Part shown: piece after piece, positions 2,794 through 41,304 of the stretch
How the letters are laid out: each line of letters starts with the position of its first letter
Numbering within the stretch: position 1 is the stretch's first letter
DNA from: a virus
Reading direction: 5' to 3' (one strand)
Virus record (IMG/VR): IMGVR_UViG_3300020048_000012
Length of the DNA: 64,000 nucleotides
The notes under the pieces: generated by a model
Seen by the model: only the letters and a program-made list of their open reading frames with translations
What the model was told of the DNA's origin: nothing
Database searches by the model: none
Made by a program: the position numbers and the translations under genes

Positions 2794-3627
2794 TTAAAGA
2801 TTGACAGATGGGTTCATGTTGTTGATTGCAAACACTTTGTCGTAAACAGACAATGACTCGATTCCTTTACTAAAGATTCCATGTGTGACGCACAATACCA
2901 ATTCTTTATCATATCCTCTTTCTCGAATAGCTTTGGCTAGTTCAATAAAGGTGCGACCTCCATCGCAAATATCATCAACGACATATAATACTTCAAATTG
3001 ATCCAAATTGCCATTTACGTAAGTTTTGACAATTTCGCCAGTCTCTGAGTCGCGATGCTTTGAAGCATTAATCACTGGAAGAATGACTTTTCCAAATGAC
3101 ACTTCTCTGATGAGCGATGCCAACTTATAAATTTTCTTTTGAGCGCCGGCGTCTGGCGCTACAAGTGCGACATTTCGATTACGTATATTTTGCATAATCT
3201 TACCTGCCCACAAACTCCATTGAGGAACCACATTTAAAAGACCAGGTTCAAACATACCCGCCAGCACATCGCTGTGTGGGTCCATGATTGTTACAGTCTT
3301 AAATTTGCATGCCTTAATAAGCTGAACAGCGACTTGCAATGCAAACGGCTCACCTTCAGTCATTACTCGATCTTGTCGAGCAAATGGGAAGTATGGAATA
3401 TCCAGGAAAATATCAGGTCGTGCAGAACCAATAATTTCGACGTTTCGAATTGCGTTGACAAGTAAAAGCATGTCAATCAAATCATTCGATCCTTCAAACT
3501 TGCAAGTAACAAACAAATCTCGACCATCAATGTCGCCGATGTCAATAATTTTGACATTGCGTTCGCCGCCAGGAAATGTCCACCATTTCAATTCAACTTC
3601 ATGTGTTCGTGTTTTGAGAGTAATCAT
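2794..3627 (-). CDS. prs: ribose-phosphate pyrophosphokinase-family protein (probably Adps of NARP1)
   Basis: FPGGE, PYFPFARQDR, DPHS, APDAGA and the PRPP-binding loop VVDDICDGGRTF. Confidence 0.92.
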   Translation of the reverse strand: MITLKTRTHEVELKWWTFPGGERNVKIIDIGDIDGRDLFVTCKFEGSNDLIDMLLLVNAIRNVEIIGSARPDIFLDIPYFPFARQDRVMTEGEPFALQVAVQLIKACKFKTVTIMDPHSDVLAGMFEPGLLNVVPQWSLWAGKIMQNIRNRNVALVAPDAGAQKKIYKLASLIREVSFGKVILPVINASKHRDSETGEIVKTYVNGNLDQFEVLYVVDDICDGGRTFIELAKAIRERGYDKELVLCVTHGIFSKGIESLSVYDKVFAINNMNPSVNL

Positions 3628-5396: not shown

Positions 5397-5963
5397 TTAA
5401 TGATATAGTTGTTTTAGACGAGAGTGAGCAGGCAACATTGGTTCAATGAAGCGCATTTGATCTGCTAAGATACCTCTATTGCGAAGAATCAGCCCTTCTT
5501 CACGAGAAGGCACATATGGCACATACAGAAGTTCCATCTTAATTTCAGATAGAAGCAAACAATCTTTATGATTGTTACAACGCTTGCACGCAGTAACGCA
5601 GTTCATCCATGAATGGACGCCACCACGGCTCCGTGGAACAATGTGATCGTTCGTCAGTCCATGCTTATCGAATTTACGTCCACAATATGCACACGTATTT
5701 AAGTCACGTCCAAATAGATTATCATTTGTCAGCACCGGCACGATTCGTTTTGGATGATGAGTTCCACGAACAGCCATAATAGACGAGAACGTAATTGAGG
5801 ATGTTTCACCTGTTGCGCGATTCTCACCGCCATATTTCGTCCAATCGCATTCACCTGATTCCCATGCTACTAAACCTTTCGCCTTGTATGTGACGGCGTC
5901 TTGCCATGTAGCCCAATGAATAGGAGTACCGGATTCGTTTAATGCTAGAACTAGTGCTGACAT
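5397..5963 (-). CDS. HNH endonuclease (McrA-like, cellular type)
   Basis: RDLNTCAYCG...TNDHIVPRSRGG...NCVTACKRCNNHK zinc-HNH motif. Confidence 0.9.
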   Translation of the reverse strand: MSALVLALNESGTPIHWATWQDAVTYKAKGLVAWESGECDWTKYGGENRATGETSSITFSSIMAVRGTHHPKRIVPVLTNDNLFGRDLNTCAYCGRKFDKHGLTNDHIVPRSRGGVHSWMNCVTACKRCNNHKDCLLLSEIKMELLYVPYVPSREEGLILRNRGILADQMRFIEPMLPAHSRLKQLYH

Positions 5964-9038: not shown

Positions 9039-9467
9039 TTAGTCGTCTATTAGAGGTTCTGTTTTGTATTGAACAAACGTGATAGATTGTGTTGGAACTG
9101 TTAGCATAGAAATGTCTTCTTCTACGTTATTTTCACTTAGCGTAATATGAGGAATATATTCCGAATAATCATATGTTGCACCCATGTCCATCGTGTCTTT
9201 ATGTAATTCATGCAGTGCATCTGATTCTAATAGAAGAACTAAGCACTCACCGAAAATAGCGTATCCTTTTGCTTTTGCGGTAATAGGCAGGAAAGGCAAT
9301 AGCGTATACGCGTCTGGCACAGGTTTACGTGAATACATAATCGTGCAATGAAGCTTATCTTGTTCTACAGGATTTTGAACATTCAATGATGCAATCAGGT
9401 TCTTAGAATTCTGATCTAATAAAACTGAAGAATATGTACCTGATGAAAATTCGAGAAATGTTAGCAT
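9039..9467 (-). CDS. acb1: 2H phosphoesterase, T4 gp57B/Acb1 anti-CBASS nuclease homolog
   Basis: Two HxT motifs (KLHCTIMYS, YIPHITLS) and close resemblance to recalled T4 57B (NPV..K.H.TI.YSR, LVL.L.S, GAT.D...Y.PHITLS); start moved to MLTFLEF. Confidence 0.85.
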   Translation of the reverse strand: MLTFLEFSSGTYSSVLLDQNSKNLIASLNVQNPVEQDKLHCTIMYSRKPVPDAYTLLPFLPITAKAKGYAIFGECLVLLLESDALHELHKDTMDMGATYDYSEYIPHITLSENNVEEDISMLTVPTQSITFVQYKTEPLIDD

Positions 9468-9494: not shown

Positions 9495-9502
9495 TATAAA
9501 TA
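9495..9502 (+). promoter_or_regulatory. T4-type late promoter
   Basis: TATAAATA upstream of the plus-strand HEG. Confidence 0.75.
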
Positions 9503-9505
9503 GTT

Positions 9506-9535
9506 GGTAGTCGCGATCCAGCAAGATCCACTACC
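9506..9535 (+). other. conserved homing-endonuclease leader hairpin, copy 1
   Basis: G-GTAGT-CGC-GATC-cagcaa-GATC-C-ACTAC-C; same fold at 12135 and 40497. Confidence 0.75.
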
Positions 9536-9567
9536 ACTAGACATTTCAACAATAATCGGAGACTATT

Positions 9568-10200
9568 ATGTCCAGCATTACTATTTATCCAATTAGATAT
9601 TACGTGTACGCCTATGTTAGAGAAGATGGCACACCATATTACATAGGTAAGGGAAAAGATCGTCGCGCATATCAATCTCATGCGCGAAAAGATAAAGTCC
9701 AAATTAAACCCCCGCCGCATCATAGAATTATAATCATAGAGCAAAATCTCACTGACGTTGGTGCCTGCGCGATAGAACGTCGTCTTATAAGATGGTACGG
9801 TAAGAAACACGATAACACTGGTATTCTAGTGAATATATTAGATGGAGGCAATGGCGGTGGCGTTAAAGGTTTAAAATTATCAGAAGAAACCAAAGAAAAA
9901 ATTCGACAAGCTAATCTAGGCAAAAAGCAATCACCGGAAACACTAGAAAAGAAAAGACTTAAGGCGCTAGGATCTAAGAGATCTAAAGAAGCACTGCAAA
10001 ATATGTCAAAGGCTCAATCTAATAGAATTGCGACTACAAAAGACGCTAAGCATAACATGTCTGAAGCAGCAAAAAATAGAACTAAACACGGCAATCAGGA
10101 TAAAAAGAATGCCATTGTTACATGCCCGCATTGCAATAAAAGCGGCGGAGCTGGAATAATGCAACGGTGGCATTTTCAAAAATGCAAATCTTTTAAGTGA
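9568..10200 (+). CDS. free-standing GIY-YIG homing endonuclease with NUMOD3-like repeats
   Basis: YYVYAY...PYYIGKGK..R; SEETKEKIRQANLGKKQSPET repeats; C-terminal CPHC; GGAGA RBS. Confidence 0.88.
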   Translation: MSSITIYPIRYYVYAYVREDGTPYYIGKGKDRRAYQSHARKDKVQIKPPPHHRIIIIEQNLTDVGACAIERRLIRWYGKKHDNTGILVNILDGGNGGGVKGLKLSEETKEKIRQANLGKKQSPETLEKKRLKALGSKRSKEALQNMSKAQSNRIATTKDAKHNMSEAAKNRTKHGNQDKKNAIVTCPHCNKSGGAGIMQRWHFQKCKSFK

Positions 10201-10613
10201 TTTCTGTGTATACGACCTCCTACATACGCGTTATAAAATTCAGATGGTTTAAGTAATACGTCGTATTGGCATTGTAGTTTCATTTCAATATATGAACATT
10301 CTGCTTTTGTTTTACAATAAGTAAGAATCTCTCGTCTAAAATTATCGGCGCCTAATGTTTCTACGTCTCGCTTTAATTCTTCAGATGAACCAAAGTATGT
10401 CAGCCAATCAGATTCGACTTGTGATTTTATCTTCTTTTTCTTTTTCACGCCAGATTTAAGCGTGATTGTTTTATACTTAGTTGAACTGAACGTAAGTAAT
10501 TTCTTCCCGATATATTTGCGACCATCCAAGAGATTGTGTATCATGTACACAAACCCGATAGCACCTTCAGGTGTTTCTTCTACAGTTTGTCCGTTATAAA
10601 GCCATTGTTGCAT
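10176..10613 (-). CDS. GIY-YIG family endonuclease (conserved T4-like type)
   Basis: GFVYMIHNLLDGRKYIGKK...ESDWLTYFGSS...FRREIL...E. Confidence 0.85.
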   Translation of the reverse strand: MQQWLYNGQTVEETPEGAIGFVYMIHNLLDGRKYIGKKLLTFSSTKYKTITLKSGVKKKKKIKSQVESDWLTYFGSSEELKRDVETLGADNFRREILTYCKTKAECSYIEMKLQCQYDVLLKPSEFYNAYVGGRIHRNHLKDLHF

Positions 10614-10642: not shown

Positions 10643-11080
10643 TTACGCTACAAGCTTGGTTGGATCATATTCGAATCCAACAACTTTCATCAACTTATTT
10701 TTAACGAATAAATTTGGTGATCGATATGAGTTTGTGTCATGAAACCCCATCATAACGCCAACTTCTGCGACTGCACCAGATCTATTGACACCGGCGAAAC
10801 AATGAGTTATTACGTTCATGTCTTTATTCATGGCCTTATCGAGAAGATCTATTATTTCTTTGGCTTGCTGATCGCTGATTCTGCATTCTTCGTCAAATAC
10901 TTTATCGCCTGCCTCAACATCAAGAAATTCGAATTTATGAACTTCTATGAATGCGTGCTTTGGCTCTGGAAACCAAGACCCTGGATCTGCGATCTGAATT
11001 AGCATCGAATTAGATCCAGGATCTTTGTAGAATGTGCCATTCGCGATATCTATTGCCGCACAGTTTTGGATGAATGGCAT
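10643..11080 (-). CDS. protein-tyrosine/dual-specificity phosphatase-like protein
   Basis: HCFAGVNRS = CX5R active-site loop. Confidence 0.8.
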   Translation of the reverse strand: MPFIQNCAAIDIANGTFYKDPGSNSMLIQIADPGSWFPEPKHAFIEVHKFEFLDVEAGDKVFDEECRISDQQAKEIIDLLDKAMNKDMNVITHCFAGVNRSGAVAEVGVMMGFHDTNSYRSPNLFVKNKLMKVVGFEYDPTKLVA

Positions 11081-11553: not shown

Positions 11554-11738
11554 GATAGTACTAACTGAATCTTTTTTAATTCAGAATTCCAAATTACGTC
11601 GATTACTCGCAAGTAACCATACTCAGTCATGACGATAGCATCAATTTGTTGAGTACGTTTATTGATACTACCGCTATTTTTATCTACATTAGCAGCCCAT
11701 AGAGCTTTCAACTTATCAGATATTTGATTAGCTTCCAT
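11550..11738 (-). CDS. hypothetical protein
   Basis: 62-aa ORF, coupled to neighbours. Confidence 0.6.
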   Translation of the reverse strand: MEANQISDKLKALWAANVDKNSGSINKRTQQIDAIVMTEYGYLRVIDVIWNSELKKIQLVLS

Positions 11739-12109
11739 TATATGGCCTTTATTAAATCATCGATCGTTGCGTTGGCGGGAATGATATTATTATATTGAAG
11801 GTGACTAATCTTCTTAATGGGGCGCACAATACGTTCAATCTTATCTATTGCACTATTGTATGTGCTCCAATTAATAGGAGTCGTCGTACCTTCATATACG
11901 CTTTCCGTTACTTCGTCGTCCCATTCGATATGAACGCTTTTTATAACCTCTTGCTTATAATAACTAGTACTCTCTGTATAACCAAGATACTTGGCTCGGC
12001 GAATGCCAGCAATGCCTTGATTATACGTAATTGCAATCACCTCATCGCCTGGATTAAACGTTGCACCATTTTTTGTGAATGGTGCAACGAGTCTTTTGCT
12101 CGTTGCCAT
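11738..12109 (-). CDS. hypothetical protein (paralog of 49863..50207)
   Basis: 123 aa; AAGGAG RBS; shares PF..G..N.GDEV, Y.GY.E, NW..YNS and LQ.N.I.P with 49863..50207. Confidence 0.75.
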   Translation of the reverse strand: MATSKRLVAPFTKNGATFNPGDEVIAITYNQGIAGIRRAKYLGYTESTSYYKQEVIKSVHIEWDDEVTESVYEGTTTPINWSTYNSAIDKIERIVRPIKKISHLQYNNIIPANATIDDLIKAI

Positions 12110-12123
12110 AATCTATTCTCCTT

Positions 12124-12131
12124 TATAAATA
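12124..12131 (+). promoter_or_regulatory. T4-type late promoter
   Basis: TATAAATA upstream of the plus-strand HEG; followed by GTTG as at 9495. Confidence 0.75.
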
Positions 12132-12134
12132 GTT

Positions 12135-12165
12135 GATAGCCGCGGAATTCCTAGTTCCCGCTATC
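12135..12165 (+). other. conserved homing-endonuclease leader hairpin, copy 2
   Basis: G-ATAGC-CGC-GGAA-ttcctag-TTCC-C-GCTAT-C. Confidence 0.75.
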
Positions 12166-12194
12166 TCTAGACTATCAACGATTAAGGAGATCAT

Positions 12195-13004
12195 ATGTCC
12201 AGCGATACCACCTATTGCACTTATCTTGTCACATATTCCGGTGACAAACTTCCCACATTTTATATTGGTTCAACCTCAACTAAAAATATTTATAATGGAT
12301 ATTTTGGATCTGTTAGCTCTAAGAAATGGAAACAAATCTATAGAGATGAACTTTTAAAATCTCCAGAAAAATTTAAAATAAAAATTTTAGAAACATTTGC
12401 ATCTAGAAAAGAGGCTTTAGAAGCAGAACTTAAACTACATATAGAAAATGATGTAGTAAAATCAAGTCAATTTATTAATGAAGCTTTAGCGACTATAAAT
12501 GGGTTCTTTGGAAGACCTATGAATGGCGAAAAAAATCCTATGCATGGAAAATCATTAAAAGACTTATTAAGTTTAGAACAAATTGAGCAATGGAAACAAA
12601 ATATTAGATCAAATTGGAAAAATGATCCAAAAATATGGATGCACAATTTTTTAAATGTAAATGCACGAATATCTACGAGTCAACTCGAAGAAGCTATAGC
12701 TCAAGGATATAGTAAAGGGTATGCTAAAGGAACTTCAAATCTTAATAGAAAAGGTATTAAACTTAAGCCACAGAAAGATAAGTTTAAATTTATAAACAAT
12801 GGTGTTATTAATAGAAAAATAAAGTTCAATGATCAATTGCCAGAAGGTTGGACTCTTGGTTGCATAAAAGGCTATAAGATGAAACCAAGAGTCGATAAAG
12901 AACCTACTATAGTTATAACAGACGAAACTTGCACTAAGAGAATTAAACTATCAGAACAAATTCCGTCTGGTTGGAAAAGAGGTAGACATTATTCTTTAAA
13001 ATAA
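12195..13004 (+). CDS. Seg-like GIY-YIG homing endonuclease
   Basis: YCTYLVTY...FYIGSTS...YFGS...F.IKILE...A.EAE...FIN; GEKNPMHGK; W..G repeats; AAGGAG RBS. Confidence 0.88.
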   Translation: MSSDTTYCTYLVTYSGDKLPTFYIGSTSTKNIYNGYFGSVSSKKWKQIYRDELLKSPEKFKIKILETFASRKEALEAELKLHIENDVVKSSQFINEALATINGFFGRPMNGEKNPMHGKSLKDLLSLEQIEQWKQNIRSNWKNDPKIWMHNFLNVNARISTSQLEEAIAQGYSKGYAKGTSNLNRKGIKLKPQKDKFKFINNGVINRKIKFNDQLPEGWTLGCIKGYKMKPRVDKEPTIVITDETCTKRIKLSEQIPSGWKRGRHYSLK

Positions 13005-34047: not shown

Positions 34048-34491
34048 TTATGAAATGAACTCATATTCTATTTCTGCCTCATCTAGCATATCACATGTGT
34101 TCTTCCATGAGGCAGCCCATGTTTCAGGCACTTCTTCATCGACTCGACAGATGATCTTCTTTGCACCGATCTGAATCAAACCCTTTGCGCATTCACTGCA
34201 CACCGGCAATCCATATACGTATATATGAGAATTGTCGAGTGAGATTCCACTATGACATGCATTGAAAATCATGTTCATTTCTGCATGTACAACGTACTTA
34301 TATTTCGTAGGACGATCGTTCAATCGTCTTGGTGTATCGACGATGCCACGAGGAAAGCCATTGTAGCCTCCGCTCAAGATAATTTTCTTGAATGGATCGA
34401 CTGCAACAGCGCCAATTTTACGAGATGGATCTTTGCTAAACGTAGAATATTGTTTAGCAAATTCCATGAAACGAGAATCCCAAGTGTTCAT
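34048..34491 (-). CDS. cd: dCMP deaminase
   Basis: SKDP..KIGAV, GYNGFPRG, HAEMN, PVCSECAK. Confidence 0.93.
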   Translation of the reverse strand: MNTWDSRFMEFAKQYSTFSKDPSRKIGAVAVDPFKKIILSGGYNGFPRGIVDTPRRLNDRPTKYKYVVHAEMNMIFNACHSGISLDNSHIYVYGLPVCSECAKGLIQIGAKKIICRVDEEVPETWAASWKNTCDMLDEAEIEYEFIS

Positions 34492-35171
34492 GATGTAAAT
34501 GTACCAATTTTTAATATTTCATATCTGCTCAAATCGAGTATTTTCATTGCTTCTTTAATACAAGAATATAATACGCCATTAATTTGCACTTTCTTAGCAG
34601 AAGGATTACCTCCTCCTGTATTTGCTTTAGATGTCCCAGGTTTTCTAATGTTCAAATTTGCTTTTCTAATTTTGCGTGCAATCTCTGTTGCTTTTTCTTT
34701 TCCAAAAAATTCTTCATTTGATACTCCAATTCTATCTTTACTATATTTGACTAATCCGTGTGTTTGACCGGATTTTCCATACATAGGATTTTTTTCACCT
34801 TTCATTTTCTCTGAATGATCAGGAAACTTTTTGCCTCGTCGAGCCGATCCGCATTTATATTTTTCTTCGTCTGTATGTGTTTTTCCAAACATGCCATTTG
34901 CTTCACCGAAAAATGTTCCACCAAGAGCTTGGTTTTTCATATTATATGACATTGGATCGCGCGCCGCGTTTAATTCTATTAGAAGCTTTTCTTCTTCTCT
35001 AAAATCATTGCCTTCATACAATATTTCGCGATCAAACGAATCAATGCCATACTTTTCCTTTGCATACTTCCAGATTAAACCAGATCCATTATAGTTTTTA
35101 TCGGCGCCATTATGACTGCCGATGTACCATTTTCCAGTTTCTTTATGCGTGTATTTGTAAACATATCCCAT
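34488..35171 (-). CDS. Seg-like GIY-YIG homing endonuclease with NUMOD3 motifs
   Basis: GYVYKY...KWYIGSH...YNGSG, FDREIL, YNMK...GG, GEANGMFGKTHTDE, KNPMYGK. Confidence 0.88.
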   Translation of the reverse strand: MGYVYKYTHKETGKWYIGSHNGADKNYNGSGLIWKYAKEKYGIDSFDREILYEGNDFREEEKLLIELNAARDPMSYNMKNQALGGTFFGEANGMFGKTHTDEEKYKCGSARRGKKFPDHSEKMKGEKNPMYGKSGQTHGLVKYSKDRIGVSNEEFFGKEKATEIARKIRKANLNIRKPGTSKANTGGGNPSAKKVQINGVLYSCIKEAMKILDLSRYEILKIGTFTS

Positions 35172-40444: not shown

Positions 40445-40452
40445 TATAAATA
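40445..40452 (+). promoter_or_regulatory. T4-type late promoter (probably for the HEG at 40552)
   Basis: TATAAATA on the plus strand, 44 nt before the leader hairpin. Confidence 0.55.
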
Positions 40453-40483: not shown

Positions 40484-40496
40484 TCTAATTAAAAAT

Positions 40497-40526
40497 GCCC
40501 ATCGCGATACGGGAATATCCATGGGC
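40497..40526 (+). other. conserved homing-endonuclease leader hairpin, copy 3
   Basis: G-CCCAT-CGC-GATA-cgggaa-TATC-C-ATGGG-C then TCTAAC. Confidence 0.72.
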
Positions 40527-40551
40527 TCTAACACTATTAGCGAGTATCAGC

Positions 40552-41304
40552 ATGAATATCTATACATCGGAAAAAGTTCTGCCATATGTTTACATGTGCG
40601 TCAATAGGCATACAAATAAAGTATACATTGGATCAAGGACAACAAAGTATCAAAAAGATCCATCTCATATCGATATACAAAAATATAAGACATCATCGTC
40701 TATTGTCAGACCGGATTTTAGCAATTTCGATTGGATCATCATTGCAGAATTTTTCGATAAAAATGACGCATACGATTTTGAACAACAATTAATTTTTGAA
40801 CAATGGCAGACGTCTAAAGAGCATTCATTGAATAAAGTGCACTATTTCAATAAGAAAAGATGCAACAATTTTGACGCAGAATCAAGAAGAAAAATATCAC
40901 ATGCTTTGATGCATCGCCCAGTAAGTGAATATACTAGAAGAAAAATATCTAACTCCAATATTGGAAAACATAACATACACCATACGTCTGAAGTTAAACT
41001 GAAAATATCAATTGCATCTAAGAATAGACCGCAAATATCAGAAGAGACACGAAACAAAATTTCTTCTTCAGCTAAAAACAGAAGGACTACGAATTATAGA
41101 AAACAAGGCGAATTTGAGCACTCTTCTAATGCTAAGGGAAAGATAGCGAATGCAATTAGCATAAAAGCGAATAGAGATTCAGTCAAAAGAATAATCGAAT
41201 TGAACGGATATCGCGCTAATCGAAAAATAGAACTGCAAAAGGGTTGGTGGCAAAAATCAGAAGAATATCTTTTAGACTTATACAACCAACTACTTTTGTT
41301 ATAA
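40552..41304 (+). CDS. Seg-like GIY-YIG homing endonuclease with NUMOD3-like repeats
   Basis: PYVY..VNRHT.KVYIGSR...Y.TSS...IIAEF...A..FEQ...LN; SEYTRRKIS and SEETRNKIS repeats; start moved to MNIYTSE. Confidence 0.85.
   Translation: MNIYTSEKVLPYVYMCVNRHTNKVYIGSRTTKYQKDPSHIDIQKYKTSSSIVRPDFSNFDWIIIAEFFDKNDAYDFEQQLIFEQWQTSKEHSLNKVHYFNKKRCNNFDAESRRKISHALMHRPVSEYTRRKISNSNIGKHNIHHTSEVKLKISIASKNRPQISEETRNKISSSAKNRRTTNYRKQGEFEHSSNAKGKIANAISIKANRDSVKRIIELNGYRANRKIELQKGWWQKSEEYLLDLYNQLLLL

Follow-up and report, generated by a model that had tools for sequence, protein, structure and literature searches.

A hairpin noticed ahead of three homing endonuclease genes in phage DNA is part of a portable cassette of ~90 bp that lies at the 5' end of free-standing homing endonuclease genes. 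The cassette consists, in order, of a late-promoter box (N)TAAATA, a gap of 0 or 2 nt, GTTG, the hairpin (HP1), CTCTAA, a second covarying hairpin (HP2) with an AGGAG ribosome-binding site in its loop, (A)YCAGC, the start codon, and TATTTAT, which is the reverse complement of the late promoter box. The substitution pattern within the stems suggests that the selected fold lies on the strand opposite the endonuclease gene and is read from there as RNA. We give an even chance to the reading, drawn from sequence, that the two facing late promoters would yield an endonuclease mRNA leader together with a ~70-nt complementary RNA that restrains translation, with HP1 as the 3' hairpin of the latter.

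The hairpin and its surroundings in the window

The window, that is, the whole 64,000-nt stretch of DNA that was analysed, comes from an uncultured T4-like phage. Its genes, nearly all on the - strand, include those for a gp41-type helicase (~61% identical to its nearest named relatives), a gp44/gp45-type clamp-loader and clamp, and an Acb1 homologue. The three + strand endonuclease genes encode proteins that can hardly be aligned to one another. A preliminary description had assigned all three to the GIY-YIG class. For genes 2 and 3 this holds at about the GIY-YIG threshold: gene 3 (40552-41304) has a NUMOD3 domain as well, and gene 2 (12195-13004, 269 aa) scores 22.0 bits, marginally below the Pfam cut-off of 22.6. 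Gene 1 (9568-10200, 210 aa) shows a family motif only (YVYAY..YYIGKGK, as in NUMOD3-bearing members) and matched no Pfam family above threshold. Gene 1 and the SegE-type GIY-YIG gene at 10176-10613 on the - strand, which is co-oriented with the majority of genes, stand tail-to-tail with a 25-nt overlap and form a back-to-back pair adjoining the Acb1 homologue (9039-9467). The small protein encoded by the - strand ORF at 10643-11080 weakly matches dual-specificity phosphatases (28 bits, under the Pfam cut-off).

The preliminary description had placed the same hairpin before all three + strand endonuclease genes, closing 25-32 nt ahead of the start codon, and both statements hold. A descriptor comprising a 5-bp stem, CGC, a 4-bp stem, a loop of 4-9 nt and C matched the + strand of the window at exactly three sites (9507-9534, 12136-12164 and 40498-40525) and the - strand of the window at none, compared with a mean of 0.017 matches in shuffled windows, both strands combined. 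One further G:C pair per stem extends HP1 to 9506-9535, 12135-12165 and 40497-40526. A covariance model derived from other phages recovered these three HP1 sites only (76.7, 66.5 and 46.0 bits), the next-best site in the window scoring 14 bits, and found nothing significant on the - strand of the window. Because the model matches only the three HP1 sites, the co-oriented endonuclease-like genes of the window are indeed without the element, but not all five genes that had been so described were confirmed as endonuclease-like: 10176-10613 is SegE-like, 5397-5963 is HNH, and 34488-35171 contains a weak NUMOD3 match. The sequence TATAAATA, the T4 late promoter, occurs on the + strand of the window only at 9495, 12124 and 40445, and every occurrence precedes a different one of the + strand endonuclease genes.

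In copy 1, the late promoter box TATAAATA (9495-9502, + strand) faces the endonuclease gene and is followed by GTTG (9503-9506). HP1 (9506-9535) comprises a 6-bp outer stem, two single-base bulges flanking one G:C pair, a 4-bp inner stem and a 6-nt loop. HP2 (9537-9575) is a long-loop variant, with GGAG at 9558-9561, and its 3' arm includes the start codon (9568-9570), since GACAU pairs with AUGUC; the conserved A.C formed by 9539 and 9573 becomes a G.U when read on the - strand. The facing box TATTTAT (9582-9588), which reads ATAAATA on the - strand, is exact in this copy and lies 5 nt from CAGC (9573-9576), and the published box-to-start distance (PMC2988020) predicts a - strand start near 9576.

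Copy 2 likewise has TATAAATA (12124-12131, + strand) followed by GTTG (12132-12135), and reading both sites confirmed that copies 1 and 2 come directly after TATAAATAGTTG. Taken on the - strand, the copy 2 box directly precedes AAGGAG and the start codon (12109) of the - strand gene 11738-12109; - strand transcription must therefore cross HP1, this ribosome-binding site being immediately beyond the cassette. The 5' side of HP1 (12135-12165) has an alternative partner, as had been noticed earlier: 12132-12139 (GTTGATAG) and 12172-12179 (CTATCAAC) are perfect 8-nt complements, and their pairing is the predicted minimum-energy fold. HP2 (12167-12202) is weak and long-looped, with AGGAG at 12185-12189, the start codon at 12195 and CAGC at 12200-12203, and the facing box is degenerate (CACCTAT, 12209-12215). 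Just upstream of the copy 2 promoter, within the 5' part of the - strand ORF 11738-12109, the + strand contains a 13-bp perfect hairpin with a T-rich tail (12059-12089) that is called terminator-like.

In copy 3, the only exact + strand TATAAATA lies at 40445-40452, 44 nt before HP1 (40497-40526), and the box position beside HP1 (40486-40493) is degenerate, the adjacent forward box having been lost. On the - strand, HP1 is directly followed by AUUUUUAAUUA (40486-40496), a terminator-like tail, and then by an extended -10-like sequence, TGTGTTATAAT (40465-40455), ahead of the gp41-like helicase gene. HP2 (40528-40550) has the short canonical form, with two A.C positions that are G.U on the - strand; CAGC (40548-40551) precedes the start codon, which is 40552 and not 40495, and the facing box TATCTAT (40557-40563) has one mismatch. 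HP2 touches the AUG in copies 1 and 2 only, where the AUG is paired.

Distribution and conservation of the cassette

We scanned IMG/VR with an exact pattern of promoter plus CGCG, which returned 31 loci, and 28 of these contained the same hairpin with stems that differ but compensate. A second scan, made without the promoter, was cleanly bimodal: true copies were fully paired and always followed (N)TAAATA, whereas chance matches were unpaired. The covariance model R1 gave 90 matches in the fetched loci, including ~10 outside the pattern selection, and altogether 88 distinct cassette copies were gathered from IMG/VR contigs. Single viral contigs carry 13 (361 kb), 7 (244 kb) and 3 (91 kb) R1 copies. 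The association with endonuclease starts thus extends to other genomes, where R1 copies head GIY-YIG genes (SegE-like, LEM-3-like), HNH genes of three Pfam HNH families, or NUMOD3-bearing remnants. At three loci (L014 8727-8806, L003 4397-4477 and L116 6175-6255, all on the - strand), intact, high-scoring cassettes accompany endonuclease genes that are frameshifted, truncated or lost.

Both boxes of the cassette are conserved in sequence and in spacing. In 75 of the 88 copies, GTTG is preceded at a gap of 0 or 2 nt by an exact NTAAATA, and in 83 copies the gap lies within 0-7 nt; the late box ends 3-6 nt ahead of HP1. At the other end, an exact TATTTAN follows CAGC by 4-7 nt, usually 5-6, in 64 of 88 copies, 27% being without an exact box. 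The first base of the facing box varies as in the forward box ([A/C/G/T]TAAATA), and no covariation is seen between the two boxes. TATTTAT occurs in all three frames relative to the ORF (51/6/3), and the frame varies even inside one HNH family, giving N-termini such as MYL..., MIFI... and MSIY...; being kept in all three reading frames, it is a nucleotide signal. In the spacers of five loci (L040, L018, L026, L110 and L123), a good sigma-70-like promoter of the TTGACA-17-TATAAT type directly follows the U-rich stretch that is complementary to the forward box.

The cassette appears to belong to no named RNA family, as had been supposed from the window. A search of the window with Rfam 15 at gathering scores gave no match, and across 14 related loci the only Rfam matches were to tmRNA and Polynucleobacter-1, both elsewhere in the loci; in E-value mode, two copies returned noise only (E 0.65-8). 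BLAST of the window region and of consensus-like copies of the element against 50,697 phage records (GenBank phages) gave no real match, and R1 found no copy in T4, S-PM2, S-SRM01 or Melnitz-2. Cellular genomes contained at least 120 pattern matches, and those listed were all chance matches without the fold. The Polynucleobacter-1 RNA (L038 6708-6846, + strand, 110.5 bits) lies ~1 kb from a cassette and close to where the associated endonuclease gene ends. The tmRNA gene (L004 3463-3849, + strand, and 3095-3190, - strand; beta/permuted type, 133-135 bits) is ~270 nt from a cassette-headed endonuclease gene.

Copies 1 and 2 belong to a subfamily, also represented in L004 and L109, in which the start codon precedes CAGC and the HP2 loop is long. 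Members of this subfamily keep CAAC in the HP2 loop, complementary to GUUG, which could reflect a pseudoknot or a switch. Copy 2 alone offers the 5' side of HP1 a full alternative partner of 8 nt, and an exchange of arms between HP1 and HP2 in the style of copy 2 was rejected as a general rule, as only the long-loop CAAC of this subfamily recurs.

Covariation and the strand that folds

The family bears out the earlier observation that the stems vary in sequence yet stay paired. Across 47 sequences, HP1 and HP2 were 93.3% paired, compared with 74.1% in shuffles, and 13 of the 18 pairs change on both sides. The covariation score was 0.524 against 0.160, a level reached by none of 500 shuffles, and the signal collapses once the partners are slid. 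The invariance of CGCG/CC reported for the three window copies proved to be an effect of the small sample, because pattern-independent copies elsewhere follow C-R-C-G / C-Y (e.g., CACG/CT).

The exceptions to Watson-Crick pairing fall very unevenly. The bulge pair, formed by the second base with the last, is G:C in 38 cases, A:U in 4 and A.C in 6, and never G.U, the series to be expected where pairing has to be maintained on the opposite strand. Over all stems, non-Watson-Crick pairs on the gene strand amount to 73 A.C versus 5 G.U in 82 distinct but related copies, which are not fully independent events; counted by distinct stem contexts, the figures are 38 versus 5, and for HP1 alone 17 versus 4. 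The conserved base of HP2, CUAA/UCAG, itself includes an A.C, which the other strand reads as G.U. Since A.C on one strand corresponds to G.U on the other, the RNA that is kept paired would be the complement of the endonuclease leader.

Predicted energies point the same way. The opposite strand gives the better fold in 58 of 59 copies, with a mean of -18.5 versus -13.0 kcal/mol. For copy 1, the values are -26.4 kcal/mol (z -4.4) on the opposite strand and -16.0 kcal/mol (z -2.8) on the gene strand; for copies 2 and 3, they are -19.6 versus -13.4 and -19.1 versus -16.4 kcal/mol, respectively. In the window, the folded strand is also the strand of the flanking genes, so read-through transcripts of the - strand would carry the structure irrespective of any activity of the facing box.

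Several known types of fold were considered and set aside. A kink-turn has a three-base bulge followed by tandem sheared G.A pairs on both strands; the CGC/C element of HP1 was rejected as a kink-turn, its inner stem being Watson-Crick (G:C first) and covarying and its 3' strand being C-Y, not GA. Loop-loop pairing between HP1 and HP2 within one RNA was rejected because both loops are purine-rich on the + strand and cannot pair. A CsrA-type arrangement of twin GGA loops and a preQ1-like fold were likewise rejected, as the strand bias disfavours a + strand fold and no family match was obtained.

Possible roles of the opposite-strand fold

Structure, covariation, strand bias and the two conserved boxes with their spacing are established by these comparisons. 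Roughly one helical turn separates the late TATA box from the start site downstream of it (PMC2988020), and the predicted starts of the two facing promoters therefore coincide with the two ends of the structured region. From the forward late promoter, a transcript would begin at the base of HP1, with a leader made up of HP1, CUCUAA and HP2 with the ribosome-binding site in its loop. From the facing box, located in the first codons, a backward transcript would begin at the G of GCUG. Its 5' part would be the complement of HP2, a hairpin flush with the 5' end and bearing an anti-ribosome-site loop, followed by the complement of HP1 and then by a U-rich stretch complementary to the forward box. 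Overlap between the two RNAs would span precisely the structured 60-65 nt, and the ~70-nt backward RNA would be exactly complementary to the endonuclease 5' UTR. Such an antisense RNA may pair with the leader loop-to-loop at the ribosome-binding site and so reduce translation of a potentially toxic nuclease, and the HP1 complement may terminate or stabilise it at the 3' end. We infer both transcripts, this 3' end and the repression. One cassette heads both GIY-YIG and HNH genes and occurs in multiple copies (13, 7 and 3) in single phages, which speaks for the antisense model; the persistence of intact cassettes before decayed endonuclease genes speaks against it, as do the inexact facing boxes of copies 2 and 3 and of 27% of the family. 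Tentatively, and at somewhat below an even chance, the cassette may be described as a self-contained and hitherto undescribed governor module, in which facing late promoters ~75-85 bp apart would produce a leader and its exact complement, the fold of the small RNA is under purifying selection, and uncultured T4-like and jumbo phages would pass the unit between GIY-YIG and HNH genes.

The predicted 3' end differs among copies. On the - strand of copy 3, AUUUUU (a U5 tract) comes directly after the HP1 complement, and the scan calls this site terminator-like; no other such site occurs in 1.1 kb, where 0.4 would be expected. In copies 1 and 2, the HP1 complement is followed by AAC and then UAUUUAUA, which the terminator scan did not call. 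Except in copy 3, the tail past the HP1 complement is AAC plus an interrupted U-run, with no canonical terminator. In many copies, including copy 2, the neighbour's ribosome-binding site follows within ~15 nt, so transcription must often pass the cassette.

Antisense control of this general form has parallels elsewhere. In IS10 RNA-OUT/RNA-IN, hok/sok and symE/SymR, the 5' UTR and ribosome-binding site of a selfish or toxic gene are covered by a small, stably folded cis-antisense RNA, and the antisense promoter of the RNA-OUT/sok type faces back out of the start of the target gene. The cassette resembles these systems in that the antisense strand is the one selected to fold, as judged from the A.C and G.U counts (73 versus 5, or 38 versus 5 by context) and the energies. 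It differs in that the genes are of another class, phage late promoters stand on both sides and the fold is unrelated, and in the cassette pairing and repression are putative. Within T4-like phages, there is a precedent in S-PM2, where the antisense RNA CfrI was experimentally detected across the 5' end of a free-standing endonuclease gene (Millard et al. 2010; PMC2984593). Like the RNA proposed here, CfrI covers the start of a homing endonuclease gene; as described there, however, it is ~225 nt long and extends into psbA, and the description mentions neither a two-hairpin cassette nor facing late promoters. R1 had no match at E <= 1 in S-PM2 (NC_006820), and no sequence or structure was found to be shared with CfrI.

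The cassette also recalls the PeSL cassettes of T4-type phages, which consist of an early promoter and a terminator-like stem-loop, are portable, occur many times per genome and lie at the borders of exchanged genes (PMC2839356, PMC4122927). PeSLs, however, have an early sigma-70-type promoter and one terminator hairpin, are found in hyperplastic regions and are not tied to endonuclease genes, whereas the endonuclease cassette has two late-type (N)TAAATA boxes and two covarying hairpins and includes the gene's translation start. Sigma-70-like promoters occur only outside the endonuclease cassette, which is therefore not a PeSL.

Among other explanations, the main rival, which we judge unlikely, is that the opposite-strand fold serves the flanking gene, either as an outward late promoter with a structured leader or as a transcript-end insulator. 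In this role, it would keep a neighbouring phage gene expressed after head-to-head insertion of an endonuclease gene. The earlier suggestion of a signal for antisense insertion keeps some merit, as about three-quarters of copies are head-to-head with a gene on the other strand. Specifically, in ~35 of ~47 classifiable copies (~3/4), the forward box is followed at a distance of 3-140 nt, often no more than 20 nt, by the start of an opposite-strand gene, and all three window copies have a divergent upstream gene. Further support comes from copy 2, in which the neighbour's AAGGAG and ATG come directly after the cassette, from the survival of cassettes beside decayed endonuclease genes, and from the coincidence in the window of the folded strand with that of all flanking genes. 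Where the spacer is 43-68 nt, a sigma-70-like promoter lies between cassette and neighbour, as would be expected after a transcript end. However, about a quarter of copies follow a co-directional gene and show the same boxes and wobble bias, and the element is always tied to endonuclease-type genes or their remnants. The neighbours, moreover, are unrelated genes, which makes a gene-specific leader function implausible. A role for the flanking gene and the antisense role are compatible and do not exclude each other.

It is improbable that the fold acts in cis in the endonuclease mRNA, with HP1 as a 5'-terminal stabiliser or protein-binding operator and HP2 presenting or masking the ribosome-binding site. 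The predicted start of the late transcript does coincide with the base of HP1, the HP2 loop contains the ribosome-binding site, HP2 of copies 1 and 2 pairs the AUG, both bulges are conserved, and the + strand fold of copy 1 beats shuffles (z -2.8). These points are countered by the near absence of wobble and the frequency of A.C mismatches on the gene strand (73 versus 5), by the conserved A.C mismatch that HP2 has on that strand, and by the weaker + strand fold in 58 of 59 copies. The preliminary description had proposed a cis-acting element that travels with otherwise dissimilar endonuclease genes; the travelling, covarying element without an Rfam match stands, but its folding in the gene's own mRNA does not agree with 73 A.C versus 5 G.U. 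Nor is HP1 a free-standing translational operator, as had been one of the options, being one of two hairpins in a fixed cassette between facing late-promoter boxes.

Late-promoter and RNA-hairpin control of homing endonuclease genes is established for T-even I-TevI, I-TevII, I-TevIII and segB and for Aeh1 mobE (PMC3014915). These systems resemble the cassette in having their own TATAAATA late promoter and an RNA structure at the translation start, with expression confined to late infection. In these systems, the 5' arm of a hairpin that sequesters the ribosome-binding site contains the promoter, and read-through transcripts are needed for control. The cassette, in contrast, has its promoter before HP1, HP1 off the ribosome-binding site, a second, facing box and a fold on the opposite strand. 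An I-TevI-type hairpin was accordingly rejected for HP1: the box is outside the HP1 arm, HP1 closes 25-32 nt before the start, and none of the three window copies has a co-directional upstream gene.

A T4-type mask of another form is very improbable. Here AUAAAUA(GU) in read-through transcripts would pair with (AC)UAUUUAU in the first codons and keep the leader closed until the late promoter fires, a mechanism established in T-even phages for I-TevI and gene e and in Aeh1 mobE (PMC3014915). Copy 1 offers a perfect 9-bp complement (9496-9504 with 9580-9588), and 8 of 22 minimum-energy folds include the helix. However, a deviation in one box is not matched by a compensating change in the other, and long-range pairing of promoter and codons is therefore a minor rival only; most copies, including all three in the window, are without a co-directional upstream gene for read-through, and HP1, HP2 and the strand bias would be left unexplained. 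Least probable of all is a DNA-level signal, that is, a single-stranded hairpin or cruciform serving homing, recombination or replication: the element lies at the border of a mobile unit, and the strand bias alone is compatible with a - strand DNA hairpin since G.T is better tolerated than A.C in DNA hairpins too, but two promoter boxes bracket the structure at fixed distances, a ribosome-binding site sits in a hairpin loop, and we know of no step in homing that requires such a hairpin.

Homing endonucleases are subject to a dosage constraint, with enough enzyme needed for spread and not so much as to harm the carrier. To our knowledge, the only worked-out phage controls of homing endonucleases are the T-even hairpins that mask the ribosome-binding site. 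The cassette described herein is common to unrelated nuclease families, is present in multiple copies per genome and comes with strand-specific evidence for a folded antisense RNA. If the antisense reading is correct, it would represent a second, apparently widespread control of homing endonuclease expression and a clean natural case of convergent-promoter antisense control in lytic phages. R1 also provides a searchable marker for free-standing endonuclease genes and insertion borders in metagenomes. If the governor reading holds, the cassette would constitute a new RNA family and a new means of keeping selfish nucleases tolerable to the phage.
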